Virus record (IMG/VR): IMGVR_UViG_2778261167_000011 | Coordinates: 1-25,534 of that record | From: a virus | Taxonomy: Duplodnaviria; Heunggongvirae; Uroviricota; Caudoviricetes | Direction: 5' to 3' (one strand) | Length of the DNA stretch: 25,534 nucleotides | Shown here: piece by piece, positions 2,260 through 25,534 of the stretch | Numbering within the stretch: position 1 is the stretch's first letter | How the letters are laid out: each line of letters opens with the position of its first letter | Notes under the pieces: generated by a model | Seen by the model: only the letters and a program-made list of their open reading frames with translations | Told to the model about the DNA's origin: nothing | Database searches by the model: none | Made by a program: the position numbers and the translations under genes

Positions 2260-2861
2260 GGATTCACTCTCATTGTGTCAATAACATGGACCGCCCCGCC
2301 TTCATGCGCGGTGCCACCGGAAATAATCGTTTCGTTGATATACGGATAGATCGTGATTTCTTCGCCAAGATAGCTGGCGGCTCCCACCCAATGCGGGCCG
2401 CTGGTCTGCAGATTGATGGACATGCCGATCATGTGGCGGCTACATGGTTTGGCATCGCTTATCAGTCGCTCAAGTTCCAGATAGGTATCTTCAGTGATGC
2501 CCTGGTCCTGCACGCCGATATCCAGGCGAAACGTGCCCGGTGTTTCTCCGGTCTGCCACCACTCAATAATGCGGATCAGGAATCCGAACGGTTCCACCAC
2601 CCGCCGCACGGCACTGGTGGTTCCTTTATGCTGATGAATATAAAAAGCATCCTTCACTACCTGGCGTTTGACGCTTTCTGTCCAGCCCTCGTCCCAGCGA
2701 TCCACAGAGAACGCCCAGGCGAGATAAGGCAGGAAGCTGACCGGACAGGTAGCCGGATTCCACAAGTCACGCAGCGGCACCTGCAAATCAGAAATCCCGC
2801 TACAGGTTTGCGCCAGTCGGCGCTCCAGTGAAGTTGAACCCGGTGGCAGCAGACTATTCAT
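2256..2861 (-). CDS. I: Baseplate assembly protein (P2 gpI-like)
   Basis: 201-aa ORF between J and H with ATG at 2861 and stop overlapping the H start; position and size match P2 gpI. Confidence 0.85.
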   Translation of the reverse strand: MNSLLPPGSTSLERRLAQTCSGISDLQVPLRDLWNPATCPVSFLPYLAWAFSVDRWDEGWTESVKRQVVKDAFYIHQHKGTTSAVRRVVEPFGFLIRIIEWWQTGETPGTFRLDIGVQDQGITEDTYLELERLISDAKPCSRHMIGMSINLQTSGPHWVGAASYLGEEITIYPYINETIISGGTAHEGGAVHVIDTMRVNP

Positions 2862-3762
2862 CCGTTCCTCCGTTGGTTACGCTCCACTGCGTACATGATG
2901 CCGCCTGTGTTTTGTTCAGGACCACATCCGCCAGCGGAGAAGCCAGTTCCACACGTTGAACACCCTCAACATGCAGAGCAGCAAAGATGGCGCTACGGCG
3001 AATATCCCGACCAAGCCTCGTCTGGCTGGCAATGTACTTCTGCAGACTGGCTTTTGCCGCTGCCATTACCGGCTCTGCTTCCGGTCCCGGATAGAGAAAA
3101 ATGGTGGCTTCCACGCGATACGGGATGATTTCTGCGCTGCGAACCGTAAGACGGTCAGCCACCGGGCGGACGTTCTCACTGTTCAGAGCTTTTTCCACCA
3201 CGTCCAGCAGGTCTTTTTCTGCAGTTCCATCGCCTTCGCGGCTAAGGACAGTCAGCACCACCTCTGCAGGTGCCGGGCTGGTTGCACTGGCATCCGCCAC
3301 CCGACCGTCGGCGCTTCGGGCATGAAATTCATAAGCTGCAGTTGGCCCCGCAACAGAAAGCCCTTCAAAGGCTGCAGGCACACGCAGGCGCAACGCTTCA
3401 TCGCTTTCCATCACAGCTGCAACGGGCGGCACAGCATCATTATCAGCAGGCGTCACCGTCAGGCGTGTCACGTTGTAGTTGGCAGCGAGCTGGTCAAGAT
3501 CGCCGCCCATCGCGTAAGCCACCATCACCGCCTGCGCGGCTTCGTTAATACGCTGGCGCAGAAGCAACTCACGGTAAGCGTTCTCCTGCAACAATTTAGT
3601 GGCGGGTTCAGATTCCAGTTCCAGCGTGCGGATCACTGCTTCCTGCTCATCTTTCGGATGAAGCGCCACAAATTCTGCCTTGCGTTCGGCAAGCAGCGTC
3701 TCAAAGTCCGGCACATCCACAATCTGCGGTGCAGGCAACTGCGAAAGGTCAATCACTGCCAT
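2854..3762 (-). CDS. J: Baseplate assembly protein J (gp6-like wedge)
   Basis: Start placed at ATG 3762 (MAVIDLSQLPAP...) preceded by AGGAG at 7-nt spacing; overlaps the W stop by 14 bp. The track ORF extends to 3801 with a non-ATG start. Confidence 0.9.
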   Translation of the reverse strand: MAVIDLSQLPAPQIVDVPDFETLLAERKAEFVALHPKDEQEAVIRTLELESEPATKLLQENAYRELLLRQRINEAAQAVMVAYAMGGDLDQLAANYNVTRLTVTPADNDAVPPVAAVMESDEALRLRVPAAFEGLSVAGPTAAYEFHARSADGRVADASATSPAPAEVVLTVLSREGDGTAEKDLLDVVEKALNSENVRPVADRLTVRSAEIIPYRVEATIFLYPGPEAEPVMAAAKASLQKYIASQTRLGRDIRRSAIFAALHVEGVQRVELASPLADVVLNKTQAASCTQWSVTNGGTDE

Positions 3763-4108
3763 TCTCTGCTCCTGTTGATACGGAAAGGGACACAGGCACA
3801 CCGTTATTCCGCCGCCCGGTCAGCTCCACCACCATTGAACCGTCAAAATTGCTGTTGATGGTGATGGAATCCAGCGTCAACCGTGGCTCCCAGCGACTCA
3901 GCGCCACATACACTGCCGACATGACCTGCAGGCGTAATGCCGGATTTTGTGGCTGATCTATCAGTGCCGACAGCAGGGAACCATATTCCCGGCGGGCAAT
4001 ACGGCTACCCTGTGGTGTCAGCAGAATGTCCCGCACCGACTGGCGCAGATGATCAATATCAGTAATGACTTTGCCGCTGGTATTGTTCATCCCGCTATAA
4101 AGCGTCAT
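3749..4108 (-). CDS. W: Baseplate wedge protein (P2 gpW / T4 gp25-like)
   Basis: 119-aa ORF; ATG at 4108 overlaps the V stop (ATGA); size and position match GPW/gp25 family. Confidence 0.9.
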   Translation of the reverse strand: MTLYSGMNNTSGKVITDIDHLRQSVRDILLTPQGSRIARREYGSLLSALIDQPQNPALRLQVMSAVYVALSRWEPRLTLDSITINSNFDGSMVVELTGRRNNGVPVSLSVSTGAENGSD

Positions 4109-4683
4109 ACCGGGCCTCCGGTTGTATCGCCGCCTTTCAGGACGCCAGTATGCTGATGCGCATCAACCACGATCCCGTTAGAACTCATCGCTCCGCCGCC
4201 CTGGGTAACGCCACCATTGATCACCACTTCGCTGTTAATGCGCGTGCGGTCAGCCTCCAGTACAAACTCACTGGTTTTCATGGTGATGTTGTCAGCAGCC
4301 TCAATGACCATTGATTTGATGCCCCTGACATACCAGCGCCCGGTGGCGGGTTCGTATTCAAACCAGCCACCGTCAGGATGTTCTGTCACGCAGGCGTCCG
4401 CCGACGTCGACGGTGGTGCGAACTGATTCGAATAGACAGCGGGCAGCGCAAAGGCGGTTTCCAGATTGCCGCCCAGACTCAGCAGCACCACCTGCTCACC
4501 TTCCGATGGTCGCCACCATGTACGGGCATTCCCGGCACGCAGCGTCAGCCAGCTGATCCAGTTGGTTTCAAGCTCGCCCGTTTTCACCCGGCAAAGCCAG
4601 TTTTCCCTGTCCACTTCGGTGACTACCCCTGTGCGGATCAGGTTGGTGATAAGGCGCATGATTTCGGTTAATTGTGCGTTCAT
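4105..4683 (-). CDS. V: Baseplate hub/spike protein (P2 gpV-like)
   Basis: 192-aa ORF that is first gene after a 68-bp intergenic gap containing a dyad; synteny with P2 V. An alternative start at Met9 (4659) is possible. Confidence 0.85.
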   Translation of the reverse strand: MNAQLTEIMRLITNLIRTGVVTEVDRENWLCRVKTGELETNWISWLTLRAGNARTWWRPSEGEQVVLLSLGGNLETAFALPAVYSNQFAPPSTSADACVTEHPDGGWFEYEPATGRWYVRGIKSMVIEAADNITMKTSEFVLEADRTRINSEVVINGGVTQGGGAMSSNGIVVDAHQHTGVLKGGDTTGGPV

Positions 4684-4728
4684 AGGGAAAGGTTGCCATC
4701 AGGGGAAGAAAGGCGGCAGTGCTGCAAC

Positions 4729-4748
4729 TTGTATCAGTGCTGATACAA
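4729..4748. promoter_or_regulatory. Perfect dyad TTGTATCAG-TG-CTGATACAA (TGT-N12-ACA) upstream of the V operon; candidate late-activator (Ogr/B-type) site
   Basis: 9-bp perfect inverted arms in the only sizeable gap of the tail operon. P2/186 late promoters carry a TGT-N12-ACA activator site. Confidence 0.45.
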
Positions 4749-4751
4749 AGA

Positions 4752-5198
4752 TCACCCCGCCAGCCATTGCAGAATCATGTCGCGGGTCATTGCCTCAACA
4801 TCATCATTTACACCCAGCAGGCGGCGCTCTGCGTAACGGACCTCCGGTCCTTTGCGACTGACGCGATCACGCAGGCCGTAATGGTGAACACGGGCAATAC
4901 GCTGCACCTTGCCTTCAAACTGTACGCTGGCAGAGTCGGCGCTGGCGGCAGTTTTCAGGTATTTTGTGGTGCGCAACTTTGCAAACATCTGACGTTTGAT
5001 GCGGCCTTTTTTGCTGCGTGCTGTTACCCTGCGCGGCTCATAGCTGCTGCCATCTGGATTGCGCTGCATCCTGATATTCTGCTGCTGTGTCCGGCGCAGT
5101 TCCTGCGCCAGCTGGCGCATCATGCGGCTTCTCGTGGCTGGTTCCAGATTCGCCAGCAAGGCACTCAGCCAGTCGTCCACCTTCTGCAGTTCAGCCAC
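4752..5198 (-). CDS. S: Tail completion / virion morphogenesis protein (P2 gpS-like)
   Basis: 148-aa ORF between R and V; GTG start at 5198 overlapping the R stop; synteny. Confidence 0.85.
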   Translation of the reverse strand: MAELQKVDDWLSALLANLEPATRSRMMRQLAQELRRTQQQNIRMQRNPDGSSYEPRRVTARSKKGRIKRQMFAKLRTTKYLKTAASADSASVQFEGKVQRIARVHHYGLRDRVSRKGPEVRYAERRLLGVNDDVEAMTRDMILQWLAG

Positions 5199-5625
5199 GT
5201 TTCACCGTCCACATTTCTTCAGGTTCATCGGGTTCTGCTACAGCTTCAACGCTCGACACACTGCCGTCAGTACTGACCAGCACACGTTCCGTCAATTGCA
5301 GGTTAAGGCTGATATCACAGACATCGTTGCGCAAAATATCCACCTCAAAGGTGAATAGCTTTTCCCGTAACGCCGGGTTATTGATGGCATCGGGCTGGTT
5401 ATCCCGAAGCCACAGTAAAACCGGGGCCATCAGCAGATTCTGGTCGCCGCTGAAATCCTCTATCACCACGTTCAGGGTATAGCGGTACTCCCATGACATG
5501 GAGCTGGCCCCCGTGGCAACCAGCGAACCGTTATCCACAAACAGATGCAGTTTGTCCGGGTTATTGCGGACATAAGGCACCGCTTTATTGAGGGCGTGGC
5601 GCAGGGATTGTGGTTTGTTCACTGT
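5191..5625 (-). CDS. R: Tail completion protein (P2 gpR-like)
   Basis: Start placed at GTG 5625 (MNKPQSLRHAL...) preceded by AGGAG at 7-nt spacing. The track ORF starts at a TTG at 5643 with an in-frame stop just upstream. Confidence 0.8.
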   Translation of the reverse strand, partial: TVNKPQSLRHALNKAVPYVRNNPDKLHLFVDNGSLVATGASSMSWEYRYTLNVVIEDFSGDQNLLMAPVLLWLRDNQPDAINNPALREKLFTFEVDILRNDVCDISLNLQLTERVLVSTDGSVSSVEAVAEPDEPEEMWTVKRG

Positions 5626-5875
5626 TTCGCTCCTGACACGCAATAATCATGTCCACTTTGTCTGCACAGACCGCCCAGGCGGCCTCCGTTTCATCCAGCA
5701 ACGCGTTCAGGCCACCGTTAGTGCGCGGCGCTGCCTGTCCCAGCCGACACGGCGTCACTCGCGGACAACCACTGACGGTAAGCTGCACCTCCGGTGAGTG
5801 TGGGGCGTTCCCGCAGCCGGATAATGTCAGCAGGCAAAGGAGTATCAGCCCAGCGGCGTAAATCCTCGTTCTCAC
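5585..5875 (-). CDS. lysC: o-spanin (Rz1-like lipoprotein, P2 LysC-like), overlapping lysB in another frame
   Basis: GTG start at 5875 with GAGGA 8 nt upstream; N-terminus MRTRIYAAGLILLCLLTLSGCG has a signal peptide plus lipobox (LSGC); Pro-rich mature part; starts inside lysB and runs past its stop. Confidence 0.75.
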   Translation of the reverse strand: MRTRIYAAGLILLCLLTLSGCGNAPHSPEVQLTVSGCPRVTPCRLGQAAPRTNGGLNALLDETEAAWAVCADKVDMIIACQERNSEQTTIPAPRPQ

Positions 5876-6146
5876 GTTTCAGTTCCTCAATCCGGTGTTG
5901 TCGTTGTCTCAGCAGTACACTGGTCTGTTCTGCTTCGGCATAGAGCCGCGCCTGCTCCCGGTTATTGGTTTCAGTCAGAATGGACAGGCTGATAAGCTGG
6001 CTGTTGCTCTTTGCCAGTGCCTGGCTTTTGCTCCGAAGCTCGTCTGCCTGCGTGCTGATGGTCTGGCTGGCATCAGCCAGCCGCCACGTCTGCCAGCCCA
6101 GCGCCGCCAGTAATAACGCCAGCACAACCAGCAGCAACCGGTTCAT
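5718..6146 (-). CDS. lysB: i-spanin (Rz-like, P2 LysB-like)
   Basis: 142 aa; N-terminal TM segment (LLLVVLALLLAALGW) followed by coiled-coil-like sequence; ATG overlaps the lysA stop. Confidence 0.8.
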   Translation of the reverse strand: MNRLLLVVLALLLAALGWQTWRLADASQTISTQADELRSKSQALAKSNSQLISLSILTETNNREQARLYAEAEQTSVLLRQRQHRIEELKRENEDLRRWADTPLPADIIRLRERPTLTGGAAYRQWLSASDAVSAGTGSAAH

Positions 6147-6520
6147 GCTGCTACCTGTTGCGCAATCTGATTACGGATCATCCAGAAGGCAATAACGGTC
6201 AGCAGATAAAAGACCAGGGTAATAGCCCACCCCGTCCAGGCGAAACTTACGACAATCAGCAATCGCATCACCCAGCTGATAAATACGTTTTCTTTTCGGG
6301 TAATGGTCTTTAGCAAAGATGCCCTCAACTCCTGCCAGAGCGGGCCGTTCTTAATTAACGCAGCCAGTGCTACCGGAATTACCGCCCATGTCAGCAGACA
6401 GGCTACCCAGACACCGGACGCTGCCAGTACCGGAAAAATCCCCTGCGGATACACCATTGCTGCGATCAACAGCGCCATCCATAACATCAGAAACAGCCCG
6501 CTGATTACTTTCTTTTTCAT
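6143..6520 (-). CDS. lysA: Lysis-timing membrane protein (P2 LysA-like)
   Basis: Start placed at ATG 6520 (MKKKVISGLFLMLWMALLIAAMV...) with GGGAG 9 nt upstream; several TM segments. The track ORF extends to 6592 with a GTG start. Confidence 0.7.
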   Translation of the reverse strand: MKKKVISGLFLMLWMALLIAAMVYPQGIFPVLAASGVWVACLLTWAVIPVALAALIKNGPLWQELRASLLKTITRKENVFISWVMRLLIVVSFAWTGWAITLVFYLLTVIAFWMIRNQIAQQVAA

Positions 6521-6521
6521 T

Positions 6522-7034
6522 TCAGTTTGCTCCCTGTAAGCACCAGGCCATCTCCCGCGCACGGCGGTTATCCAGCCCCTGATTAAAAACACCTTTCACA
6601 TAAACCCAGCGCGGCAACTGTCGGCACGCATCCGCCCAGCGCCGCTGATTGAGCAATTTCACCAGTGTGGAACTGCAGGCATTGCCCGTTCCCACGTTGA
6701 AGGCAAACGACACCGCAGCGTCATACACCTTCTGCGGCGGCTGTTGCTTCACACACCTTTCCAGCGCCCGCTCCACACGCAGCACGTTGGAGATCAGCCC
6801 TTCTGCTGCCTGTCGCTCCGTAATGGTTTTGCCGGGAATGACGCCCGACGTATTACCAATGCCGTCGGTCCAGACACCCGCGCTGCACTGATACGGCTGC
6901 AGACGACAACCTTCATAATCGGCAATCAGTTTCAGCCCTTCCACGGAGGTGTGAAGCTGCTGAAAACCCGGCAGCGTGGCAGCAATAGCCAGCACGGTCC
7001 CGACAAGGCAGCGTTTAACGATTGATGGATTCAT
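6522..7034 (-). CDS. K: Endolysin, GH24 T4-lysozyme-like (P2 gpK-like), possibly SAR-type
   Basis: EGLKLIADYEG...GVWTDGIGNT lysozyme catalytic region; N-terminal weakly hydrophobic Gly/Ala-rich stretch CLVGTVLAIAATLPGF. Confidence 0.9.
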   Translation of the reverse strand: MNPSIVKRCLVGTVLAIAATLPGFQQLHTSVEGLKLIADYEGCRLQPYQCSAGVWTDGIGNTSGVIPGKTITERQAAEGLISNVLRVERALERCVKQQPPQKVYDAAVSFAFNVGTGNACSSTLVKLLNQRRWADACRQLPRWVYVKGVFNQGLDNRRAREMAWCLQGAN

Positions 7035-7230
7035 AGTCCTCCCGCGAGATCTGCCCGTCGCGCAGAAGCTGGTAGGCTTTGTGTTTGTAGTACCAGTTGA
7101 TAGCCAGCATCAGCACACCAATCATCAGGCCGCCCAGCGTTGAGGCATCCTTGATGGACAAATCGCCCAGCCAGGCCAGCACGACGGCGATGCAATACGT
7201 GATAAAGGCGCTGATTCGCTCAAGCGTCAT
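7015..7230 (-). CDS. Y: Holin (P2 gpY-like)
   Basis: 71 aa with two hydrophobic TM segments and a charged C-terminus; directly upstream of the endolysin. Confidence 0.8.
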   Translation of the reverse strand: MTLERISAFITYCIAVVLAWLGDLSIKDASTLGGLMIGVLMLAINWYYKHKAYQLLRDGQISREDYESINR

Positions 7231-12468: not shown

Positions 12469-13493
12469 TGGGAAAGAGTAAGAAGAACCGCGCTGCGGCG
12501 ACGAAACAGATCCAGCATAAAAACCAGACTTCAGCCGAAGCATTCAGCTTCGGTGATCCCGTTCCTGTTCTGGACCGCCGCGAACTGCTGGACTATGTGG
12601 AATGCGTACAGATGGACCGTTGGTATGAGCCACCAGTGAGTTTCGACGGCCTGGCGCGAACCTTCCGCGCCGCCGTACACCACAGCTCACCGATTGCAGT
12701 AAAGTGCAACATTCTGACCAGCACCTATATCCCTCACCCGTTGCTCAGCCAGCAGGCTTTTTCACGTTTTGTGCAGGACTATCTGGTATTTGGTAATGCC
12801 TACCTGGAGAAACGCACGAACCGCTTCGGTGAAGTTATCGCCCTTGAACCTGCCCTGGCAAAATACACTCGACGCGGATTAGACCTGGATACCTACTGGT
12901 TTGTGCAATACGGTATGGCAACCCAGCCGTATCAGTTCACGAAAGGCAGCATCTTTCATCTGATGGAACCGGATATTAATCAGGAGATCTACGGCCTGCC
13001 TGGCTATCTTTCTGCTATTCCATCCGCTCTGCTCAACGAGTCCGCCACGCTGTTCCGCCGGAAGTATTACATTAACGGCAGTCATGCAGGCTTCATCATG
13101 TACATGACCGATGCCGCGCAAAACCAGGAGGATGTGAACAACCTCCGCAACGCAATGAAAAGCGCCAAAGGACCGGGTAACTTCCGCAACCTGTTTATGT
13201 ACTCGCCTAACGGCAAAAAGGATGGGCTTCAGATCATTCCTCTGTCAGAAGTCGCGGCGAAGGATGAGTTTCTGAATATCAAGAACGTGAGCCGGGACGA
13301 CATGATGGCGGCGCACCGCGTACCGCCGCAAATGATGGGGATTATGCCTAGCAATGTCGGGGGGTTTGGGGATGTAGAGAAAGCTAGTAAGGTATTTGTG
13401 CGGAATGAGCTTTTACCTTTGCAAAAATTGATGCAAGCGCTTAATTGTTGGCTGGATGAAAATATAATTACATTTAATAAATATATTTTGTAG
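12468..13493 (+). CDS. Q: Portal protein (P2 gpQ-like)
   Basis: Start placed at ATG 12468 overlapping the P stop (track ORF starts at a TTG at 12465); size and position match P2 Q. Confidence 0.93.
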   Translation: MGKSKKNRAAATKQIQHKNQTSAEAFSFGDPVPVLDRRELLDYVECVQMDRWYEPPVSFDGLARTFRAAVHHSSPIAVKCNILTSTYIPHPLLSQQAFSRFVQDYLVFGNAYLEKRTNRFGEVIALEPALAKYTRRGLDLDTYWFVQYGMATQPYQFTKGSIFHLMEPDINQEIYGLPGYLSAIPSALLNESATLFRRKYYINGSHAGFIMYMTDAAQNQEDVNNLRNAMKSAKGPGNFRNLFMYSPNGKKDGLQIIPLSEVAAKDEFLNIKNVSRDDMMAAHRVPPQMMGIMPSNVGGFGDVEKASKVFVRNELLPLQKLMQALNCWLDENIITFNKYIL

Positions 13494-13508
13494 TTCCTGT
13501 TTATAATT

Positions 13509-13530
13509 AACGCCTGCCTGAGCAGGCGTT
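13509..13530. terminator. Bidirectional intrinsic terminator between convergent Q and the DUF262 gene
   Basis: Perfect hairpin AACGCCTGC-ctga-GCAGGCGTT with A/T-rich flanks on both sides. Confidence 0.6.
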
Positions 13531-13533
13531 CTT

Positions 13534-15315
13534 TCATTTAAAACGTGTTGCAATATCTGCTGCTTCGATAACTGTTGCTTTTACGGTATTATCGCCAGCA
13601 CGATAATAAATATCCCCATCATAACTAGAATAAGATGCTAGAAGTGGAATTGTAATAACTATAACTCCATAACCATAAAAGTCATTATAGTCAATCAAAC
13701 TCACCACTTGTGATTTAAGAGGCTCACTCAAAGCAGATTTTTTCAACTCATCGCAAAAACGTCTATAATATTCTTCCATTGATATGCCGAGTTTAATAGC
13801 TTCTCTTTTAACACCAACAACACTTCTCTCACCAACTACATGTGCATCTATATCATCAAGCTCTTTTACTCTACTTGTATCACTTGGTTTATCTGTTACA
13901 CCAAGCAATAACTTACCAACTACACCGTTCTTGTTACCTTTACCGATGTTAGCAATAGCACAAATTGTGGAGAATATTTTCTCATGAATGCCATCATCAA
14001 TAGTTCGCTCTCCGCCTAACATCAACAAACCCTGTTTCAGTTCATAATTTGCAAGCTCTATTTCAGATCTTCGTAAAATATCCTCAATATCCACCGTATT
14101 GTGAGAATTATAGATATGACTGCTATCGGCGCTATCAATAAAGTTATCTTTAATCAAGCCTATGATAGAATTAATATTCTTTCTTCTCTCTTCCCCACCA
14201 GTAGCAGATCTTTTAGTATCTAGTCGAGTGACTATATTATTAAGATTGTCTTTTACACCTTTATAATTATTAATCTTCTTATTTTCTTTAATGAGTAATT
14301 CATGAAAAGCAATAAATAACACAGCAAATATGGCTGGGAAAGCATTTGTAGTACGTTTAGTAAAGATTAAATCCCTGAGTTTAATTTCACCGTCACTATT
14401 ACATACTTTTGTTATTTCCTGGATGCAGAATTTAAACTCTTCTGCAAATTTTCCTTCACCATAAACATTAATAGCAGAGCTAATACGACTATACTCTTCA
14501 TCTTCATTATTATAAATCTGATCAAGCGCATCTTTGGAACGATCTATTAACTTACCTCCAACAATACAAGCTGCTATATCTGCAATGCATTGCTCATCCA
14601 TACTGTCACGAAGGTCTGTTGAACGTAAGATCCCATGTTTTACCCAAAATACTTCTTCCGACTGAATTTGGTAACCATGTTTAGTTAGTGGCAAATCAAT
14701 GCTAATAGACGGCATTTGCTCTAAAAGCAATATGTCGTCAGATACATCCCCCCTGATAGAACAGGCAATATCCCTAACCATATTTGAAAATTTATTTTGT
14801 ATACCAGCCTGGCGCCTTTCTTGATCACTAAGTCTATGCCCGTATGTATTAATTCTATCAAAAACATCATTTATTTCGTTCTCAGTCGCATTACGCATAA
14901 TGGACATTGCAAGAGAATAATCCAATAACTGAGTAACCTCACGCTGACTTAAAAGATTATCAGCTTTCACTGCAACAAACTTACCTTCATCCGCTCGATT
15001 TTTCGCTGTGGGAAAAGCGTCCAGATTAAAACGTTTTCCATCAAGTGATTCATATCCTGTTTCGATGAAAGACATTATTGCATGTAATCTTTGTAGGCCA
15101 TCAATTATTTCATATGTGCCAGGATCATTTTCCCTTTCCGCGAGAAGAACTGCAGGAATTGGATATTTTTTTTGAATGGATTCAATTAATTTTTGTTTCT
15201 CTATTGCAGTCCAAACTAATTTTCGTTGATAACGTCTATTAACAAATATCTTACCTTCAGTAAACCATGAATAAATAGTTTGTATAGAAGTTGTTTGCGG
15301 TAATAGTTCAGCCAT
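13534..15315 (-). CDS. DUF262 / ParB-like nuclease-domain protein, 593 aa, AT-rich cargo gene
   Basis: ATG at 15315 with AAGGA RBS; N-terminal YEIIDGLQRL (DGQxR-type) motif characteristic of DUF262 as in GmrSD/BrxU/SspE/DndB N-domains; C-terminal ~350 aa unassigned. Composition is much more AT-rich than the flanking phage genes. Confidence 0.8.
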   Translation of the reverse strand: MAELLPQTTSIQTIYSWFTEGKIFVNRRYQRKLVWTAIEKQKLIESIQKKYPIPAVLLAERENDPGTYEIIDGLQRLHAIMSFIETGYESLDGKRFNLDAFPTAKNRADEGKFVAVKADNLLSQREVTQLLDYSLAMSIMRNATENEINDVFDRINTYGHRLSDQERRQAGIQNKFSNMVRDIACSIRGDVSDDILLLEQMPSISIDLPLTKHGYQIQSEEVFWVKHGILRSTDLRDSMDEQCIADIAACIVGGKLIDRSKDALDQIYNNEDEEYSRISSAINVYGEGKFAEEFKFCIQEITKVCNSDGEIKLRDLIFTKRTTNAFPAIFAVLFIAFHELLIKENKKINNYKGVKDNLNNIVTRLDTKRSATGGEERRKNINSIIGLIKDNFIDSADSSHIYNSHNTVDIEDILRRSEIELANYELKQGLLMLGGERTIDDGIHEKIFSTICAIANIGKGNKNGVVGKLLLGVTDKPSDTSRVKELDDIDAHVVGERSVVGVKREAIKLGISMEEYYRRFCDELKKSALSEPLKSQVVSLIDYNDFYGYGVIVITIPLLASYSSYDGDIYYRAGDNTVKATVIEAADIATRFK

Positions 15316-15449
15316 GAAACAAATTCCTTCTTCTGGATAGAATTTTATAATATAGAAACTGAAAAGGTTAAGTTACCATCAAAAATGATGATAGCAACAA
15401 AAAGATACCATTTTGTAATTTTTTGTTCAGATTTTCATATCAGAGCGCG

Positions 15450-15468
15450 CTCGTATCCCCGCCACGCC
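15450..15468 (-). other. Putative cos (cohesive end) core
   Basis: Minus strand reads GGCGTGGCGGGGATACGAG followed by GCGCGCTCTGA. From memory, this resembles the 19-nt P2/186 cohesive ends (GGCG(A/T)GGCGGGGAAAGCA...) and the following GCGCGCTGA. Orientation relative to Q is as in P2. Confidence 0.45.
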
Positions 15469-15999
15469 TGCCCGCTTTATGTAGTAGTTTTCATGCACCT
15501 GCATGACATGAGCAAAAGCCCGCCAGTTCTGGCATGTCTTAGCCAAACCGATCCTCAAACGATCATGCGAACTCATGCAGCATAGACATGCATGACATGA
15601 AAATCGGTCAAACCTTGAAACCAGTCATAAATATGAGCCAGCTTAATACACACTAAATAGCTGCGTCTAATACTGCTACACCTGCCGTTTACTGACATGT
15701 GGCATGTCGCGTAAGGACAACATACTGTAGGCCAGATACAGCAGGATCAGGCGAAGAAAACGGCCCCACGCCTTACCCAGCAAGAGCCAAGGGCCAAGGG
15801 CTAACCGAAAGTGGAACACTATTCCGCGCAGTTATTTAGTGTCAGCTCTTTTGAGCTAAAATCAAGTTTCAACATGAGGGTCTGTGCAGGCTTTCTCATC
15901 CCGCTAATTTATACAGCACACCTATATATGGCTATGAGTTTGTCATGCCCGCTAATCCTGTTAGGATTAGCCTTGTTTTTTTACGATTGGGATAGGGAT

Positions 16000-16806
16000 A
16001 TGAAGAAATTAACTGGCGTAATTGCTTTTGCTCTGCTGCTTACTGCTTGTGACAAACCGAAGATCGATGCATCAAGCGATCAGTCGATGAAAGAGTCCAT
16101 TCAAAAAGTAAGAGAGTCCTTACCTGCAGATAAAAAAGCTCAGTTCGATGATGCAGTTAAAGTCGTTGCCTTTAGCCAAATCAACATGAGAGAGCTAATG
16201 CAGGCTGGAACGTCTTCTGGGGACGTCTACGAAACAAAAATTAAGTCAGCGTTGGAAGGTAAAACTGGTGATGAGGTTATAAATTACGCACAAACTATTC
16301 GCCTTGAGCGTGAGAAGAGAGAGAAAGAACAGGCTCTGCAAGAAATAAAAGAACTGGAAGCCAAACAAACCTCTGCAACACAGGCTGCGGAAAAAATGAA
16401 AGCCTTCAAGGTCGAACGTTCCCGTTTTTATTTCCAGAAAGAGGATTACGGCAATGATCAGCCAATTCTGGATATTAGCGTTGAAAACGGAACAGACAAA
16501 GCGGTTGCCAGAGTATTCTTCAAAGGAGTTATTGCCAGCCCAGGAAGAAGCGTCCCTTGGTTCTCTGACGTCTTCAACTATAAAATTTCTGGAGGTCTGG
16601 AACCAGGTGAGAAAGCCAACTGGAAATTAGCCCCTAATAGATACTCTGATTGGGGAAAACTTAAAGTTCCGGCTGATGCTATATTTACCGTCACAGTCAT
16701 TGGCCTTGAAGACGCAGATGGGAAATCGATCTATGGTGACGCCGAGTTTTCAGAACGCGATGCTGACAGACTGAATCAACTTAGAGATAAGTACCTTTCT
16801 AAATAA
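16000..16806 (+). CDS. Lipoprotein of unknown function (cargo gene)
   Basis: Start placed at ATG 16000 (MKKLTGVIAFALLLTACDK: signal peptide plus lipobox LLTAC). The track ORF extends upstream to a GTG at 15811. Charged coiled-coil-like middle region (EREKREKEQALQEIKELEAKQ). Confidence 0.75.
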   Translation: MKKLTGVIAFALLLTACDKPKIDASSDQSMKESIQKVRESLPADKKAQFDDAVKVVAFSQINMRELMQAGTSSGDVYETKIKSALEGKTGDEVINYAQTIRLEREKREKEQALQEIKELEAKQTSATQAAEKMKAFKVERSRFYFQKEDYGNDQPILDISVENGTDKAVARVFFKGVIASPGRSVPWFSDVFNYKISGGLEPGEKANWKLAPNRYSDWGKLKVPADAIFTVTVIGLEDADGKSIYGDAEFSERDADRLNQLRDKYLSK

Positions 16807-16914
16807 TCAAAATTAAAGCTACTTCAGCATAGTCCCTGAGAATATATATCAGGGACTACCAAATCACGGCAGATACCCCTTAGTTAAATAATGCTAAACG
16901 CTTAGAAAGAGACC

Positions 16915-17214
16915 ATGAAACGTATAACTTTCTCCTTTACGTTAGTAGCAATCATCATAGCCTTAGCTGGATGTGCTTTGCCAGATAAAGACGGCGACTT
17001 CGGAGCTTATGTTCATGCCTGTCAGCAATATGCATACGGAAAATCCTATGCCTTTGAGAATAGAGACTTCGCGTATAAGGTCTGTAAGGACGCGGCGAAA
17101 CTGTGGAGTGACGAAGTTCCTGGCTATATCATCAGGCAAATTCAACTACATCCTGAAATACCCAGCGAAGAAATTAAATATGCAGCCATGGCCGGCTCTT
17201 TGGGGAACAACTAA
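16915..17214 (+). CDS. Small lipoprotein of unknown function (cargo gene)
   Basis: 99 aa; MKRITFSFTLVAIIIALAGCALPDKDG (signal peptide plus lipobox LAGC); followed by an intrinsic terminator. Confidence 0.7.
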   Translation: MKRITFSFTLVAIIIALAGCALPDKDGDFGAYVHACQQYAYGKSYAFENRDFAYKVCKDAAKLWSDEVPGYIIRQIQLHPEIPSEEIKYAAMAGSLGNN

Positions 17215-17227
17215 ATCAACTTATGAG

Positions 17228-17249
17228 AAAGGGGCTTAATGCCCCTTTT
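17228..17249. terminator. Bidirectional intrinsic terminator
   Basis: AAAGGGGC-ttaat-GCCCCTTTT hairpin with A- and T-runs on either side, between the convergent lipoprotein genes and the small minus-strand ORF. Confidence 0.65.
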
Positions 17250-17281
17250 CGGTTCCCTTATCAAGTCCTAACGAAACAAGC

Positions 17282-17470
17282 TCAACTGATTACATCCATC
17301 GACCTACTGTATTCATGGCTTCGAATTTTCGCCATCAACTCATCAGTCAATTCAGAAACCCACTGCAGAGCTAGCCCCTTCTCTTCATCACTACACTCAC
17401 TAGCCGCTACAAGCTTAAGAAAAAAATCAATGCGCTGGAGCTTCAAAGACTCCAAAAAATAGTCCTGCAT
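17282..17470 (-). CDS. Small hypothetical protein (62 aa) downstream of A
   Basis: ATG at 17470 with strong RBS (AGGAGGAAAG) and an AT-rich promoter-like region upstream (17480-17600). The track ORF is longer (to 17572) but its 5' part looks non-coding. Confidence 0.45.
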   Translation of the reverse strand: MQDYFLESLKLQRIDFFLKLVAASECSDEEKGLALQWVSELTDELMAKIRSHEYSRSMDVIS

Positions 17471-17623
17471 CTTTCCTCCTATAACACCATACGCAATACT
17501 GTACATATAACCACTGTTTATATTTACAGTATATAATAATCTTACTGATGTAAAACGTTTTTTTACGTTCATCAGCCTGATATGCCTGGTATTATTAAGA
17601 GCACGAATTGTTAACCCGCGTGA

Positions 17624-20582: not shown

Positions 20583-20924
20583 TTAATTCGGCATGGTTAG
20601 CCGTTTTGGAAATAAGCTCACCACTGCACGAAAATGATTCATTGCTTTAATCAGTTCCCGCTTTTCGTCAGTAGTCAGATCACTAATATTGACGCTATGA
20701 CGTTCTGCCGGAATTTTTGCCATATAAAATATGGCTGCCAATGCCCTCACATTTTGTTTATTGTTAACGTCCCTTTGGTTGCGCATATCTTCAATGAACC
20801 TTTCAAGCTCCGACTCAATATTCAGGCCAAACACTTTTGCGCGTAATTCTGCAATATGGTTCAGTCCGTCCAGGCGTTTACCGGGGCTTAATGGGACAGT
20901 CACCACAGCGCCTTCAATAGCCAT
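20583..20924 (-). CDS. Hypothetical early-operon protein
   Basis: Start placed at ATG 20924 (MAIEGAVV...) with GGGGGA RBS; the track ORF begins at a GTG at 20936. Confidence 0.6.
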   Translation of the reverse strand: MAIEGAVVTVPLSPGKRLDGLNHIAELRAKVFGLNIESELERFIEDMRNQRDVNNKQNVRALAAIFYMAKIPAERHSVNISDLTTDEKRELIKAMNHFRAVVSLFPKRLTMPN

Positions 20925-21003
20925 AAATTCCCCCACTGGTCACTTACTACTCCTTCTCTGATATGATTTTCCGATGCAACGAGATAACTCAGAGGGTGTA
21001 CCA

Positions 21004-21252
21004 ATGTTGAACCTGGTTGAGAAGGAACGGATCGAGCAGCTTGAAAATGAAATTGCGCGACTGCGAGAGGATGTTGAGATGCAACAAATCCTGCTGTCTG
21101 GCTTACTACACAGTGTGCTACGAGGAGAATCATCGAATCAGTCAGCATTTTTAAACATCCTTCGTGAAGAATTAAACAAATTGCCGCCAGGCTCACTCAA
21201 ACGTCAGGAATTCACCTACAAACTTCAGGAGCTAATAGAGCGTTACCGATAA
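21004..21252 (+). CDS. Hypothetical coiled-coil protein (82 aa), antisense to the early operon
   Basis: ATG at 21004 with GAGGG RBS at good spacing; heptad-like sequence ERIEQLENEIARLREDVEMQQ; 3' end overlaps the convergent 74-aa ORF. Confidence 0.45.
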   Translation: MLNLVEKERIEQLENEIARLREDVEMQQILLSGLLHSVLRGESSNQSAFLNILREELNKLPPGSLKRQEFTYKLQELIERYR

Positions 21253-21467
21253 GTTTGTTGGCGATACTGTTCAAGAGGTGATGTGCTTTTCCGCATCACT
21301 TCCTGAACCCGTTCCCCCCGAAAGAATGTCCCATCTCGCAACGTAAAATAGTAACTACCATCACCCGAAAGAGACGGATAACAACTTGCAAACTCGTCCT
21401 CATGAATTGAATACTTTTCGCCCTTATGGAAGAACTGGTAAAACACACCTTCTGTAGCTTGCGCCAT
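21243..21467 (-). CDS. Hypothetical early protein (74 aa; positional analogue of 186 fil/dhr-region genes)
   Basis: ATG at 21467 with AGGGG RBS; protein-like composition, unlike the alternative overlapping frame. Confidence 0.55.
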   Translation of the reverse strand: MAQATEGVFYQFFHKGEKYSIHEDEFASCYPSLSGDGSYYFTLRDGTFFRGERVQEVMRKSTSPLEQYRQQTYR

Positions 21468-21638
21468 GATTTCCCCTTTTTGGTTGTAGACAATTCATCC
21501 AGAAGCGCATTCTGAGTACGGCACAGGTGCCAGCGCTTGCCATCCTTCCCCATAATCCAGCCATGACCGCAGTGCATTGCCGGGCTTTGCCTCACCAATA
21601 GTGATGCAAATGAAGGTTCTTTCGTCAGCATAACCACC

Positions 21639-22148
21639 TCAGATCAGACCGAACGAAGCACCGAGGCCCGTCACGGTATCTACTGCGCTTGCCATCGCTG
21701 GGTTAGCCTGCAAACGCGCCTGTAATGAAACTGCAGTCAGTGCCATCAAACGCGTAACTGAATTAATGCTGCTAATTACATCGCGGCGGCCTGCGGTAGT
21801 TTTCACTTCACCAGAGACGGCACCTGCAGCAACACGACCTATTTCTGCGGTAGCGCTCATGACGTAATGCGGCAATTTCTCTTTTGCAACTTCGTTTACC
21901 GGAACACATGGCAAGCAATGAATTTGCGCCAGAAACCCATCAACTAATGTGGAGTCTTCGGTGAGATCGGTTAGCAGCCATATGTCTGGCGCCGTGAGCT
22001 GGTGCGGTTGCTCCGGGTTGAGCTTATTGCGCAGGGTTTGGACGTTCATGCCTGCAAGTTCTGCCAGCTTCGCCATGTTGTGCCGTAAAGCAAAAGCCCG
22101 ACAGGCATCATGGAAATGCGGATGTTTTGATATGCGATAGTCAAACAT
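21639..22148 (-). CDS. cII: Phage regulatory protein CII (186 CII-like)
   Basis: 169 aa. The N-terminal region (HNMAKLAELAGMNVQTLRNKLNPEQPHQLT) matches my recollection of the 186 CII family HTH region; located right after apl in the lytic operon. Confidence 0.75.
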   Translation of the reverse strand: MFDYRISKHPHFHDACRAFALRHNMAKLAELAGMNVQTLRNKLNPEQPHQLTAPDIWLLTDLTEDSTLVDGFLAQIHCLPCVPVNEVAKEKLPHYVMSATAEIGRVAAGAVSGEVKTTAGRRDVISSINSVTRLMALTAVSLQARLQANPAMASAVDTVTGLGASFGLI

Positions 22149-22180
22149 AGTCAGTTGCTCCGTGAAGTCTCAGAATGGAA

Positions 22181-22402
22181 CTAGTTGATAGTCACATTGC
22201 AATCAGAAAGAGCATCGACCGTCATCGCAGCGATGTTAATCATCACTTTTTCACGCTTTTTGTCCTTGCGTAGGCGATGACGAAGCAATCGCCCATCCGC
22301 AAGCATGTCGTTGATTGTGTCGATAGATAACCCAGTGAGTTCACTATATCTTTCAATAGTGACGTGGGGGGTGATGAGAGTGATTGAAATGTTAGGTCTC
22401 AT
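22181..22402 (-). CDS. apl: Apl/Cox-like excisionase and transcriptional regulator
   Basis: Start placed at ATG 22402 (MRPNISITL...; track ORF begins at a TTG at 22426); small HTH protein (ERYSELTGLSIDTINDMLADGRL), first gene of the lytic operon and divergent from cI. Confidence 0.7.
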   Translation of the reverse strand: MRPNISITLITPHVTIERYSELTGLSIDTINDMLADGRLLRHRLRKDKKREKVMINIAAMTVDALSDCNVTIN

Positions 22403-22527
22403 GATGCAACATTCCTCGTTTAGCAATGATTAATCAGGATGAATACTGATCGTTTGTATTTTGTGAACACGATAAACATACGATCACATCATGAAATCGT
22501 CAAGATAAAAGTTCACCTGGAGTGACC
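22403..22527. promoter_or_regulatory. Immunity switch region with candidate pR and operator
   Basis: Minus strand shows -35 TTGACG (plus 22498-22503), a 17-bp spacer and -10 TATGTT (plus 22475-22480), reading toward apl. Inverted repeat TGATCGTTTGT (22447-22457) / ACATACGATCA (22476-22486), 10 of 11 matching, overlaps the -10. Confidence 0.5.
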
Positions 22528-23094
22528 ATGAATTTGGAAAAAGGCGGCCGTGGTGCCATAGAGCGTATGGTTGAAGCCTATGGCTTCAAGACAAGACAAG
22601 CTTTGTGCGACCATTTAGGGATTTCAAAGAGTACTTTGGCGACACGCTATATGCGCGACTCCTTCCCTGCGGAATGGGTTATTCAGTGCGCCTTAGAGAC
22701 AGGTACGTCATTGAGCTGGCTGACTAATGGCTACGGAATCAAAGAGGGTTCACAAAATGAAAACACCAAAGAACTTCCGCTAAAAATTCTCTATGATGGT
22801 GAACTTTGTCCTGAAGGGTCTTATGTTTTTGATGTAAATTTTCTACCTAAAGCTCTAAAAAATCCGATGGTTGTTGTTGTTGATAGTTCCAAATACATTT
22901 GTGATATTGATTATGATGATGTCCGTGATGGAAAATGGATTGTTAATATTGATGGTGAAATATCAATGAGAACAATTACACGCTTGCCTGGCAGGCGCCT
23001 TCATGTGGAAGGTGGTATATCTCCTTTCGAATGCGCGTTAGAAGATATAATAATGATCGCAAAAATCGTGATGGCATGTCTTGAATATAAATAA
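22528..23094 (+). CDS. cI: CI-type immunity repressor (186 CI-like)
   Basis: Start placed at ATG 22528 with GGAG RBS (track ORF begins at a GTG at 22522); N-terminal HTH (RQALCDHLGISKSTLATRYMRD); divergent from apl; ~188 aa. Confidence 0.8.
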   Translation: MNLEKGGRGAIERMVEAYGFKTRQALCDHLGISKSTLATRYMRDSFPAEWVIQCALETGTSLSWLTNGYGIKEGSQNENTKELPLKILYDGELCPEGSYVFDVNFLPKALKNPMVVVVDSSKYICDIDYDDVRDGKWIVNIDGEISMRTITRLPGRRLHVEGGISPFECALEDIIMIAKIVMACLEYK

Positions 23095-23140
23095 AACTTA
23101 AATTTTAGCAAAATAAATCACGTGAACGAGGAGCTAATTA

Positions 23141-24397
23141 ATGGATGAATGTATAGTCGAGATGTTATTAATAGTGAATAAAGATACTTCCTTTGGACGC
23201 TCTCCGTCAGCCTATAAAAAAATAATTGAGGCCAGTGAGGAAGTCATATTTTCACCAAAAGAATTAAAATTCAAAGAACAGTCATTTAAATATGATATAT
23301 CAGAATATGGAAGCAATAAAGAAACTATCTCTGTAAAATTAACACTAAACGACGTTAGTGAAGATAATTTAATCACTTTCTCAAGATTAACCAGACTCTT
23401 CAAAAAAATATCTAGCGAAAGTAATTTAGGTAGCACTCAAATTATTTGGGATGATATAAGCAAATATTACTCAATTCAGGCTTATCCATTAATCCATGAA
23501 ATTGAAAACTTAATGAGAAAATTAATAACAAAATTCATGATACATAACGTTGGATTGTCTTGGACAAAAGATTCAGTGCCGAAGGAATTTTCAGAAGCAT
23601 TGAAAAAATCCGAAAAAAACACAGAATATAATGAACATAATTTAATGTATCAAGTTGACTTTATTGAACTTTCTGACTTTATATTCAAATCTTACCGAGA
23701 GATTGAAATAACAGATTTGATCCGAAAATTAACCCCGCTTGAATTTAAAGACATTAATGCTGATATATTCTCAGAATTGAAAAAAATCGTTCCCAGAACA
23801 AACTGGGAAAAATTCTTTGAGTCAAACATCGAAGCAAATGCTGACACTATAATAAAAAATTGGAGTATTTTATATCGACTCAGATGCAAAGTTGCTCATA
23901 ATAGAGATTTTACTAAACAAGATCTTGATGAAGTAATTCGCCTTACAAATACACTGAGTCCAATACTAAAAAAAGCAATTGAAAAAACCGAGACTCTGAC
24001 TATTGATCCGAAGGAAAAAGAAGAATTAACATCCCAGTTTGAGAATGAGTTTTCTAACAATACTAAAAGTGATGAAGAATTATTCAAAGACAGAGTGCTT
24101 GAATTATATCTACAAATAAGACATTTATATCAACTTACACATTCAAACAGTGAAAATATTAATAGCTATTACAAAGTAATACAAACAACATTCCAAAATG
24201 TTTTGCATGACGAAAAGTTCAATGCCGAAGACGTAATGAATTTAATTAATATCTCAACTAATGATGATGTTCTGAGAAAATGTGATAATTTCGAGATACA
24301 TGATTTAATGAATATTTGCCATTCTATTAAAGAACTTGTTAATTTTAAAATATCAAGTTTTGAAGCTGGGTCAAATGAAGCAGTTAAAAATGAATGA
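23141..24397 (+). CDS. AT-rich 418-aa hypothetical protein with an Rx4H (HEPN-like) motif; candidate abortive-infection/defence cargo
   Basis: ATG at 23141 with GAGGAG RBS, 46 bp after the cI stop; Lys/Asn/Glu-rich; RLRCKVAHNRD matches the HEPN Rx4-6H signature; followed by an intrinsic terminator. Confidence 0.8.
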   Translation: MDECIVEMLLIVNKDTSFGRSPSAYKKIIEASEEVIFSPKELKFKEQSFKYDISEYGSNKETISVKLTLNDVSEDNLITFSRLTRLFKKISSESNLGSTQIIWDDISKYYSIQAYPLIHEIENLMRKLITKFMIHNVGLSWTKDSVPKEFSEALKKSEKNTEYNEHNLMYQVDFIELSDFIFKSYREIEITDLIRKLTPLEFKDINADIFSELKKIVPRTNWEKFFESNIEANADTIIKNWSILYRLRCKVAHNRDFTKQDLDEVIRLTNTLSPILKKAIEKTETLTIDPKEKEELTSQFENEFSNNTKSDEELFKDRVLELYLQIRHLYQLTHSNSENINSYYKVIQTTFQNVLHDEKFNAEDVMNLINISTNDDVLRKCDNFEIHDLMNICHSIKELVNFKISSFEAGSNEAVKNE

Positions 24398-24456
24398 TAA
24401 TGTTTTATCTAATAGTTATCAAACATTGACCACTGTTCAAACATACAGTTAAATTT

Positions 24457-24481
24457 AGCCCTCAGACATGAGGGCTTTTTT
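24457..24481 (+). terminator. Intrinsic terminator whose 3' arm contains the integrase RBS
   Basis: AGCCCTC-agacat-GAGGGCT followed by TTTTTT, abutting the int ATG at 24482. Confidence 0.65.
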
Positions 24482-25534
24482 ATGGCAGTACGAAAACTCG
24501 ACACAGGTAAATGGATATGCGAATGCTACCCCGCAGGTCGCAACGGACGCCGCATGCGTAGGCAATTCGCCACTAAAGGCGAGGCTCTGGCTTTCGAACG
24601 TCACACTATGGAAGAAACAGAAGCAAAACCCTGGCTAGGCGAATCGGTAGACCGTCGGACTCTAAAAGACGTCGTTGAACTCTGGTTCAAGCTGCACGGC
24701 AAATCTCTGACTGCTGGCGAGCATGTTTACGACAAGCTGATCCTGATGGTCGATGCTCTCGGAAATCCCCTCGCCACTGATTTAACATCCAAAATGTTCG
24801 CGCACTATCGCGATAAACGCCTGACAGGTGAAATCTACTTTAGCGAAAAATGGAAGAAAGGAGCCAGCCCGGTAACTATCAATCTTGAGCAAAGCTATAT
24901 GAGCGGAGTGTTTAGCGAGTTGGCACGACTTGGAGAATGGACTGCACCAAACCCACTGGAGAACATGCGCAAATTCACCATCGCAGAAAAGGAGATGGCC
25001 TGGCTGACTCATGAACAAATCACTGAGCTTTTGTGCGACTGCAAACGCCAAAGCCCCCTGCTCGCTCTGGTTGTCAAAATCTGTCTGAGTACCGGTGCCC
25101 GCTGGCGCGAAGCTGTAAATCTGACTCGTTCTCAGGTTACAAAATACCGGATCACATTTGTCAGGACTAAGGGCAAAAAGAACCGCAGCATTCCGATCAG
25201 CAAAGAGTTGTATGAGGAAATTATTGCCCTGGACGGCTTCAAGTTCTTTACTGACTGCTACTTCCAGTTTTTATCTGTGATGGAGAAAACTTCTATCGTG
25301 CTGCCGCGCGGTCAGCTTACCCACGTTCTGCGCCATACGTTTGCAGCACACTTTATGATGTCAGGCGGTAACATCCTTGCCCTACAGAAAATCCTTGGTC
25401 ACCACGACATAAAAATGACCATGCGCTATGCTCACCTAGCCCCTGATCACCTTGAAACAGCGCTGCGCTTTAACCCATTGGCAACCCTGCCAAATGGCGA
25501 CAAAGTGGCGGCAGCGGTTGGCATTGCACCGTAA
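24482..25534 (+). CDS. int: Tyrosine site-specific integrase (P2/186 Int family)
   Basis: 350 aa; catalytic signatures ARWREA (Arg), HVLRHTFAAH (HxxR box) and MTMRYAHL (tyrosine nucleophile); stop codon is the last three bases of the window. Confidence 0.93.
   Translation: MAVRKLDTGKWICECYPAGRNGRRMRRQFATKGEALAFERHTMEETEAKPWLGESVDRRTLKDVVELWFKLHGKSLTAGEHVYDKLILMVDALGNPLATDLTSKMFAHYRDKRLTGEIYFSEKWKKGASPVTINLEQSYMSGVFSELARLGEWTAPNPLENMRKFTIAEKEMAWLTHEQITELLCDCKRQSPLLALVVKICLSTGARWREAVNLTRSQVTKYRITFVRTKGKKNRSIPISKELYEEIIALDGFKFFTDCYFQFLSVMEKTSIVLPRGQLTHVLRHTFAAHFMMSGGNILALQKILGHHDIKMTMRYAHLAPDHLETALRFNPLATLPNGDKVAAAVGIAP

Follow-up and report, generated by a model that had tools for sequence, protein, structure and literature searches.

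A gene carried in the cI-int slot of a 186-type prophage encodes a putative stand-alone HEPN ribonuclease and candidate defense protein

In phage 186 (NC_001317), the integrase gene follows the repressor gene directly: int (21423-22433) and cI (22433-23011) overlap by 1 nucleotide (nt) within the pL lysogenic operon. An earlier reading made from the letters alone (the sequence-only reading) had this arrangement right and had pointed to a departure from it in a 25,534-nt stretch of viral DNA, which we call the window (positions 1 to 25,534 of IMG/VR record IMGVR_UViG_2778261167_000011, Caudoviricetes). In this 186-type prophage, a gene of 418 codons lies between cI and int. What does the gene encode, and why is it there? 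We estimate a probability of roughly 0.65 that it is horizontally acquired cargo encoding a stand-alone HEPN ribonuclease, most likely an abortive-infection or superinfection-defense protein. The gene and its surroundings are as follows.

23141 to 24397, + strand: HEPN cargo gene, from the list of open reading frames (ORFs); ATG start, 418 amino acids (aa), AT-rich, encoding a three-domain protein
22522 to 23094, + strand: cI immunity repressor (Pfam Phage_CI_repr, 1e-30; Phage_CI_C, 8.7e-25), which opens the lysogenic operon
23095 to 23140, + strand: cI-to-cargo spacer of 46 bp, with GAGGAG at 23128-23133, 7 nt before the ATG
24482 to 25534, + strand: tyrosine integrase int (Int_N, 2.2e-31; Phage_integrase, 6.1e-21), whose stop codon is the end of the window

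The ORF list, the GC profile, and the Pfam matches of the neighbors bear out the description of an AT-rich 418-aa ORF between cI and int. The GC content across the gene is 0.26 to 0.32 (about 0.29) versus 0.47 to 0.55 in the flanking phage DNA, and the probability of 418 stop-free codons at the gene's own base composition is 2.6e-17. The protein had been called rich in Lys, Asn, and Glu, which was roughly right: Glu (10.8%) and Lys (9.8%) are among its three most frequent residues, but Asn (7.9%) ranks below Ile (10.0%), Leu (9.3%), and Ser (9.1%). The start 46 bp past the cI stop codon behind a strong ribosome-binding site was confirmed, as was the lack of an obvious separate promoter. A promoter scan found no sigma70-like site on the + strand within the 46-bp spacer, and a promoter of the cargo gene's own was therefore rejected. 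Across the region, the scan found 14 promoter-like sites versus 10.7 ± 3.0 in shuffled sequence, i.e., no excess. The ORF list places apl/cII upstream of cI on the - strand, divergent from it.

The protein is divided as follows (secondary structure is from the AlphaFold2 [AF2] model).

23141 to 23452, + strand: N-terminal alpha/beta domain, aa 1-104
23453 to 23995, + strand: central Swt1/AbiF-like HEPN domain, aa 105-285, with an insertion of about 90 residues between core helices
23504 to 23521, + strand: helix-1 motif E122-N123-L-M-R126-K127 (ENLMRK), with E122, N123, and R126 invariant
23882 to 23902, + strand: predicted catalytic motif R248-C-K-V-A-H253-N254 (Rx4H followed by N)
23996 to 24394, + strand: C-terminal helical domain, aa 286-418, with no conserved Rx4-6H

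The sequence-only reading rested its assignment on RLRCKVAHNRD, which is aa 246-256 and contains R248-x4-H253. Such a motif is cheap: a protein of this composition is expected by chance to contain 0.30 Rx4H and 0.89 Rx4-6H motifs, and the protein has a second Rx6H, at aa 327, that is not conserved. By this count the motif alone is insignificant; it becomes meaningful because R248, A252, H253, and N254 are all invariant in 89 homologs. The same four residues are invariant in a smaller alignment of 30 members, and the alignments extend to about 25% identity. The other invariant residues are E122, N123, and R126 in helix ENLMRKLITKFM, together with D173, F174, N221, W222, W241, and Y245. The Pfam profile HEPN_Swt1 (PF18731) matches aa 123-267 with an E value of 5.5e-4 (profile positions 8-105 of 115), and it matches 82 of the 89 family members at E values of <0.01, the best being 2.3e-8. 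Conservation and profile matches thus bear out the identification of the Rx4H as a HEPN motif.

The predicted structure agrees. All models are of monomers; the full-length AF2 model has a mean predicted local distance difference test score (pLDDT) of 84 and a predicted template modeling score (pTM) of 0.69, and a model of aa 101-291 alone reached 87.5 and 0.82, respectively. In the model, the central domain is a HEPN fold, a helical up-down bundle, and the Rx4H motif falls within it, at the end of helix 234-252 and in the following loop; the structure-prediction check suggested with the sequence-only reading thus came out in its favor. The closest structural matches are AbiF, Swt1, AbiA, Cas13b, and HepT, all of them nucleases, with AbiD/F nearest. 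A Foldseek search with the full-length model found no match in the PDB at an E value of ≤0.001, the multidomain query being uninformative.

The flanking domains behave differently. When compared with distant homologs, the HEPN domain is 41% identical, the N-terminal domain 18%, and the C-terminal domain 11%; the protein is a conserved effector core with fast-evolving flanking domains. The model of the N-terminal domain has strands at 4-13, 35-37, 41-44, 47-58, 62-72, and 97-104 and helices at 22-30 and 74-93, and Foldseek matched it weakly to ferredoxin-like folds. This domain is a candidate sensor or oligomerization domain.

Homology searches placed the identical protein on at least 174 contigs, mostly of E. 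coli, with copies of 98 to 99% identity in Klebsiella and Citrobacter. The wider family, of proteins of about 400 aa, extends to Proteobacteria, Firmicutes, cyanobacteria, and spirochaetes (Leptospira). When 1.84 billion representative proteins were searched with a profile, 1,760 clusters (at 50% identity) matched with E values of ≤1e-3 and 628 with E values of ≤1e-30, most of them over the full length. Members carry the NCBI label "HEPN domain-containing protein"; in NCBIfam and PHROGs, nothing matches the window protein. At every locus read, the identical protein lies in a 186-type prophage in the order cI, HEPN gene, int; in E. coli these prophages adjoin rcdA/ybjJ, which follow int. More distant homologs lie in other settings.

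Kosakonia: homolog of 50% identity in the same cI-int slot
Enterobacter hormaechei (6001-7173 of the locus): homolog of 390 aa and about 30% identity, the sole psu-int gene of a P4-like satellite
Pseudomonas aeruginosa (6001-7218 of the locus): homolog of 405 aa with the second HEPN motif intact, bordering a Pf-like filamentous prophage
Bacillus thuringiensis: homolog among RES and reverse-transcriptase genes
Cronobacter turicensis (5833-7221 of the locus): homolog with a 51-aa C-terminal fragment of cI, between the RybB small-RNA gene and rcdA

Helper-type prophages and their satellites thus both carry members of the family. The P. aeruginosa prophage has Zot and DUF2523, and the homolog lies after a same-strand ORF of 91 aa. 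Apart from the cI fragment and the HEPN homolog, the Cronobacter remnant has lost its phage genes, int included, and the cargo gene looks like a case of domestication by the host. The cI-int, P4, Pf, Bacillus-island, and remnant contexts have no neighboring gene in common; in all contexts examined, the HEPN gene stands singly, with no partner or inhibitor gene.

The sequence-only reading had also argued for defense cargo from the gene's placement, and this argument holds, in that the same cI-int slot of sibling prophages carries other cargo, including a PD-Lambda-1 homolog. In siblings at the same rcdA site, the cargo differs but lies on the strand of cI and int, 0 to 46 bp past cI, in every case.

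E. coli A14 and phage vB_EcoM-813R9: 558-aa DUF4041 protein (PADLOC PD-Lambda-1, 4e-120)
KO11FL and H14: KAP P-loop nucleoside triphosphatases (PADLOC PDC-S20, 1e-171 and 4e-82; PifA-like region)
Klebsiella phage 4LV2017: 349-aa hypothetical protein, unannotated and with no PADLOC match
RM10740: a 63-aa ORF only

The alternative cargo occupies 2031-3482, 3716-5244, 1811-3487, and 1851-2900 of four sibling loci, each in its own numbering. The slot therefore has what defines a defense hotspot: conserved flanks, variable cargo, and known defense systems among the alternatives. A DUF4041 defense protein was validated by Vassallo et al. 2022 (PMC9519451). The P4 psu-int hotspot was validated by Rousset et al. 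2022 (PMC9122126), who also pointed out a hotspot between cI and int of K139-like Vibrio phages, and a 2026 preprint reports 8% of P2 defense systems to lie between integrase and primase. In the P2 gpA-portal, P4 psu-int, and Vibrio K139-like cI-int hotspots, too, the flanks are conserved, while the AT-rich cargo varies and includes known defense systems. In the hotspot literature, we found no specific description of the cI-int slot of rcdA-integrated E. coli 186-type prophages.

The two edges of the slot are unlike. At the left junction, the sequences of prophages with different cargo diverge immediately past the cI stop codon. At the right junction, an alignment of seven prophages with four kinds of cargo revealed a conserved segment.

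24407 to 24481, + strand: backbone segment before int, about 75 bp, kept whatever the cargo, forming the right junction of the slot
24426 to 24455, + strand: promoter-like site TTGACC-18-TAAATT (promoter scan)
24457 to 24481, + strand: terminator-like hairpin AGCCCTCAGACATGAGGGCT plus T-run, abutting the int ATG; 8 pairs, 5 of them GC, with a T5 tail (terminator scan)

The 3' arm of the hairpin holds GAGG, the likely ribosome-binding site of int. E. coli H14 has a compensatory change in the stem (GCCCTC/GAGGGC to GTCCTC/GAGGAC), and the RNA fold of 24395-24500 has a z score of -4.4. The segment could mark the end of the cI-cargo transcript, mask the translation of int, or both. If it acts in this way, int would be uncoupled from the lysogenic operon, a difference from phage 186 with its overlapping cI and int genes.

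We compared the window protein with known HEPN systems. The HEPN core is structurally similar to those of AbiD and AbiF, e.g., PbAbiF (PDB 8vz6) and C. difficile AbiF, but the window protein has additional N-terminal alpha/beta and C-terminal domains. In AbiF systems, an upstream noncoding RNA acts as the antitoxin (PMC12373285). The Abi_2 domain (PF07751) has no match in the window protein at an E value of ≤1 or in the 89 homologs at ≤0.01. The abiF RNA (RF03085) was found neither in the window at an E value of ≤5 nor in five homolog loci at the gathering score, and there are no direct repeats or repeat array upstream of the window gene. On these three grounds, we rejected membership in AbiF; and because both RF03085 and an upstream repeat array are missing, the gene appears to have no RNA antitoxin.

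The best functional analog is HepS of the Salmonella prophage Gifsy-1, a constitutively produced solo HEPN protein that stays inactive until the phage tail-tip protein J triggers it and that cleaves tRNA anticodon loops (PMC13043305). Like hepS, the window gene is prophage-borne, single, and without a partner gene. HepS (PDB 9oik) differs in being a 218-aa tetrameric protein of essentially one domain, encoded at another locus of a lambdoid phage, and we detected no sequence similarity between the two (no PDB sequence match at an E value of ≤1).

Other candidates were set aside. A HepT/MntA type VII toxin-antitoxin system was rejected, as no MNT (nucleotidyltransferase) gene lies in any neighborhood examined; moreover, HepT corresponds to one domain of a larger protein in this family, and the clade of the window protein has no motif there. 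Compared with Cas13 and Cas13an, the window protein has about 400 aa, not about 1,000, and it has neither a CRISPR array nor a lobe that binds CRISPR RNA. It is not a tandem-HEPN protein, i.e., one with two Rx4-6H domains per chain, since the second motif is absent. Swt1 (C-terminal domain of the yeast protein, PDB 4pqz) is a eukaryotic mRNA-surveillance nuclease with PIN and HEPN domains, unrelated in architecture and biology. PADLOC system PDC-M34 was rejected: PDC-M34B matches only in part (profile positions 60-133 of 192, aligned to aa 113-180; E value, 4.4e-7), and component A is absent, the HEPN gene being the sole cargo in the slot. Searches of the literature for "PDC-M34" and "tandem HEPN" returned nothing relevant, and the "tandem" of the type IX retron refers to KH domains, not HEPN. 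Among the constructs of Rousset et al. 2022, the "Putative HEPN" of pFR103 is unrelated in sequence, and the "HEPN-TPR" of pFR83 (ATCC 8739) is of a different family; the latter was excluded because the window gene and the P4-type homolog have no match in complete E. coli genomes.

With HepS as the working model, the defense protein that we favor might act as follows. The gene would be cotranscribed with cI from the lysogenic promoters, on a transcript possibly ended by the hairpin and T-run, and its product would be present in the lysogen and inactive in uninfected cells, as HepS is. An infecting phage would supply a trigger, sensed by the N-terminal alpha/beta domain, the C-terminal helical domain, or both. 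The central HEPN domains would then dimerize, so that two Rx4H motifs form the active site, and RNA (tRNA, mRNA, or rRNA) would be cut, stopping translation and blocking phage production. Expression in the lysogen, triggering, dimerization, RNA cleavage, and the defense phenotype are all proposed here by analogy.

Several points weigh against this reading. The window protein scores 20.6 bits against HEPN_Swt1, below the Pfam gathering cutoff of 27.5. Only one Rx4H per chain is conserved in its clade, so that activity would depend on the putative dimerization. Some HEPN domains are noncatalytic. The AT-rich DNA could be silenced in the lysogen, in which expression of the gene is presumed, and the phage trigger and RNA target are proposals. 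Megablast did not find the gene in any of 5,426 complete RefSeq E. coli genomes, about 1,095 of which carry a related int, and tblastn found no homologs in 50,697 phage records. The gene is also nearly absent from plasmids. Yet draft and metagenome assemblies contain the identical protein in 375 indexed blocks; the explanation is either rarity of the gene or underrepresentation of its carrier lineages among finished genomes. Finally, we found no experimental work on any family member in the literature.

The C-terminal domain may hold a clue to control of the protein. Distant homologs (≤35% identity) have a second motif, RNxxVH, near the C terminus. An Rx4-6H motif is present in 60 of 67 distant C termini, and 28 of the 89 homologs have a Pfam HepT-like match there. 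The family profile aligns RNxxVH with the motif of solved HepT toxins (E value, about 0.08). In the window protein and its enterobacterial relatives, no motif is conserved at the position of the second HEPN, and the window protein has no HepT-like Pfam match. Its C-terminal domain has no sequence relatives in the PDB or Pfam, and homology of the clade's C-terminal domain to the HepT-like domain was not demonstrable (hhalign probability of 16%, with a collinear alignment). However, the scores of HepT-type toxins are higher for the full-length model than for the central domain by itself (9.0 versus 6.5, 8.5 versus 6.6, and 8.4 versus 6.5), which suggests that a HEPN-like fold is retained in the modeled C-terminal domain. 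The domain may be a HEPN that has degenerated and serves in regulation or sensing. In some family members, only profile positions 1-300 match, and there the C-terminal domain has been replaced.

A tentative and, on balance, doubtful extension of these findings is that the ancestor was a non-CRISPR tandem HEPN protein (Swt1/AbiF-like plus HepT-like) and that the second HEPN of the enterobacterial clade, stripped of its catalytic residues, has become an autoinhibitory pseudo-HEPN. At rest, it would cover the face through which the active HEPN dimerizes, forming an intramolecular, half-dead pseudodimer that makes an antitoxin unnecessary. A phage trigger would displace it and so allow HEPN1-HEPN1 dimerization and RNA cleavage. 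The C-terminal domain, swapped outright in some members, would serve as both safety catch and specificity determinant. A fusion of Swt1/AbiF-like and HepT-like domains is of the kind proposed as the origin of Cas13.

We weighed three other explanations of the gene. Its position inside the lysogeny operon, beside cI and int, would also suit a module serving the prophage itself, by stabilizing it (addiction or postsegregational killing) or by tuning the lysis-lysogeny decision through the processing of phage or host transcripts, e.g., the cI-int mRNA. HEPN toxins are common in toxin-antitoxin systems (HepT is among the family-profile matches), and C. difficile AbiF has been discussed as a possible prophage stabilizer (PMC12373285). 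We nevertheless consider this explanation unlikely. None of the contexts yielded an antitoxin gene, an MNT partner, or an antitoxin RNA; the gene outlives the decayed prophage in Cronobacter; and the family also occurs in unrelated elements (P4, Pf, and the Bacillus island). In addition, sibling slots are empty or hold unrelated cargo, which places the HEPN gene outside the lysogeny circuit.

We give little credence to a role as a weapon between mobile elements, directed by a 186-type helper at P4-like satellites or P2-like competitors, or as a counterdefense factor. Members do occur in both P2/186-type helpers and P4 satellites, and an interplay of defenses between P2 and P4 was discussed by Rousset et al. 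2022 (PMC9122126). Yet the family reaches Bacillus, cyanobacteria, Leptospira, and Pseudomonas Pf contexts in which there is no P2/P4 pair, and placement in the lysogenic operon speaks against early lytic counterdefense. A noncatalytic HEPN (a ligand- or RNA-binding sensor, decoy, or scaffold whose conserved R and H serve binding) would fit the first definition of HEPN as a nucleotide-binding domain, the single conserved Rx4H per chain with the second HEPN motif lost, and the lack of a toxicity safeguard such as an antitoxin, but it is very improbable given that R248, H253, N254, and the helix-1 E, N, and R are invariant as in catalytic HEPN RNases (89 sequences sampling about 1,700 clusters), that the nearest structural matches (AbiF, Swt1, AbiA, Cas13b, and HepT) are nucleases, and that HepS is a solo HEPN RNase without an antitoxin.

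An abortive-infection or superinfection-defense ribonuclease also agrees with an independent prediction. DefensePredictor (PMC13092281) lists WP_088543997.1, a "HEPN domain-containing protein" of 418 aa (1257 nt) from E. coli, as "Predicted novel defense gene" with log-odds of 13.4, and its remote-homology column gives AbiD with a probability of 91. This is very probably the window protein. A clear family member, WP_069609595.1, has log-odds of 14.4 there, and both accessions are missing from the DefensePredictor files of tested systems. The family has thus already been noticed, through this listing and the NCBI label. To have called it an unknown family was fair: there is no NCBIfam or PHROG match, the match to a PADLOC candidate is only partial, and the literature search for experiments came back empty. 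Among the well-known HEPN abortive-infection nucleases, the window gene is credibly a variant with a new architecture.

If a defense function is confirmed, a family of about 1,760 clusters, with an architecture not covered by the searched copies of PADLOC, NCBIfam, or PHROG, joins the known single-gene HEPN defense proteins. A slot for lysogen-expressed cargo would then be documented between cI and int of 186-type E. coli prophages, and it could be mined like P2 gpA-portal and P4 psu-int. Also if confirmed, the contrast between two catalytic HEPNs (distant members) and one plus a degenerate one (window clade) would be a natural experiment bearing on antitoxin-free control of HEPN domains and on the origin of two-HEPN enzymes such as Cas13.

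The window has a second AT-rich cargo region, at 13200-17600 (GC content, 0.33 to 0.44), in the P2 hotspot between the portal-side genes and gpA.

13534 to 15315, - strand: ORF of 593 aa (GmrSD_N/DUF262, 1.6e-22; PADLOC NsnA, 8e-31, and PD-T4-2_A, 2e-18)
15811 to 16806, + strand: ORF of 331 aa (DUF6694)

By its sequence matches, the prophage therefore has at least two putative defense cargos. A separate dip in GC content (0.39 to 0.47) lies at 20583-21470, inside the early operon. There, a + strand ORF at 20974-21252 (92 aa, coiled-coil-like) opposes the surrounding - strand early genes, and an 82-aa + strand equivalent was called in all related loci.

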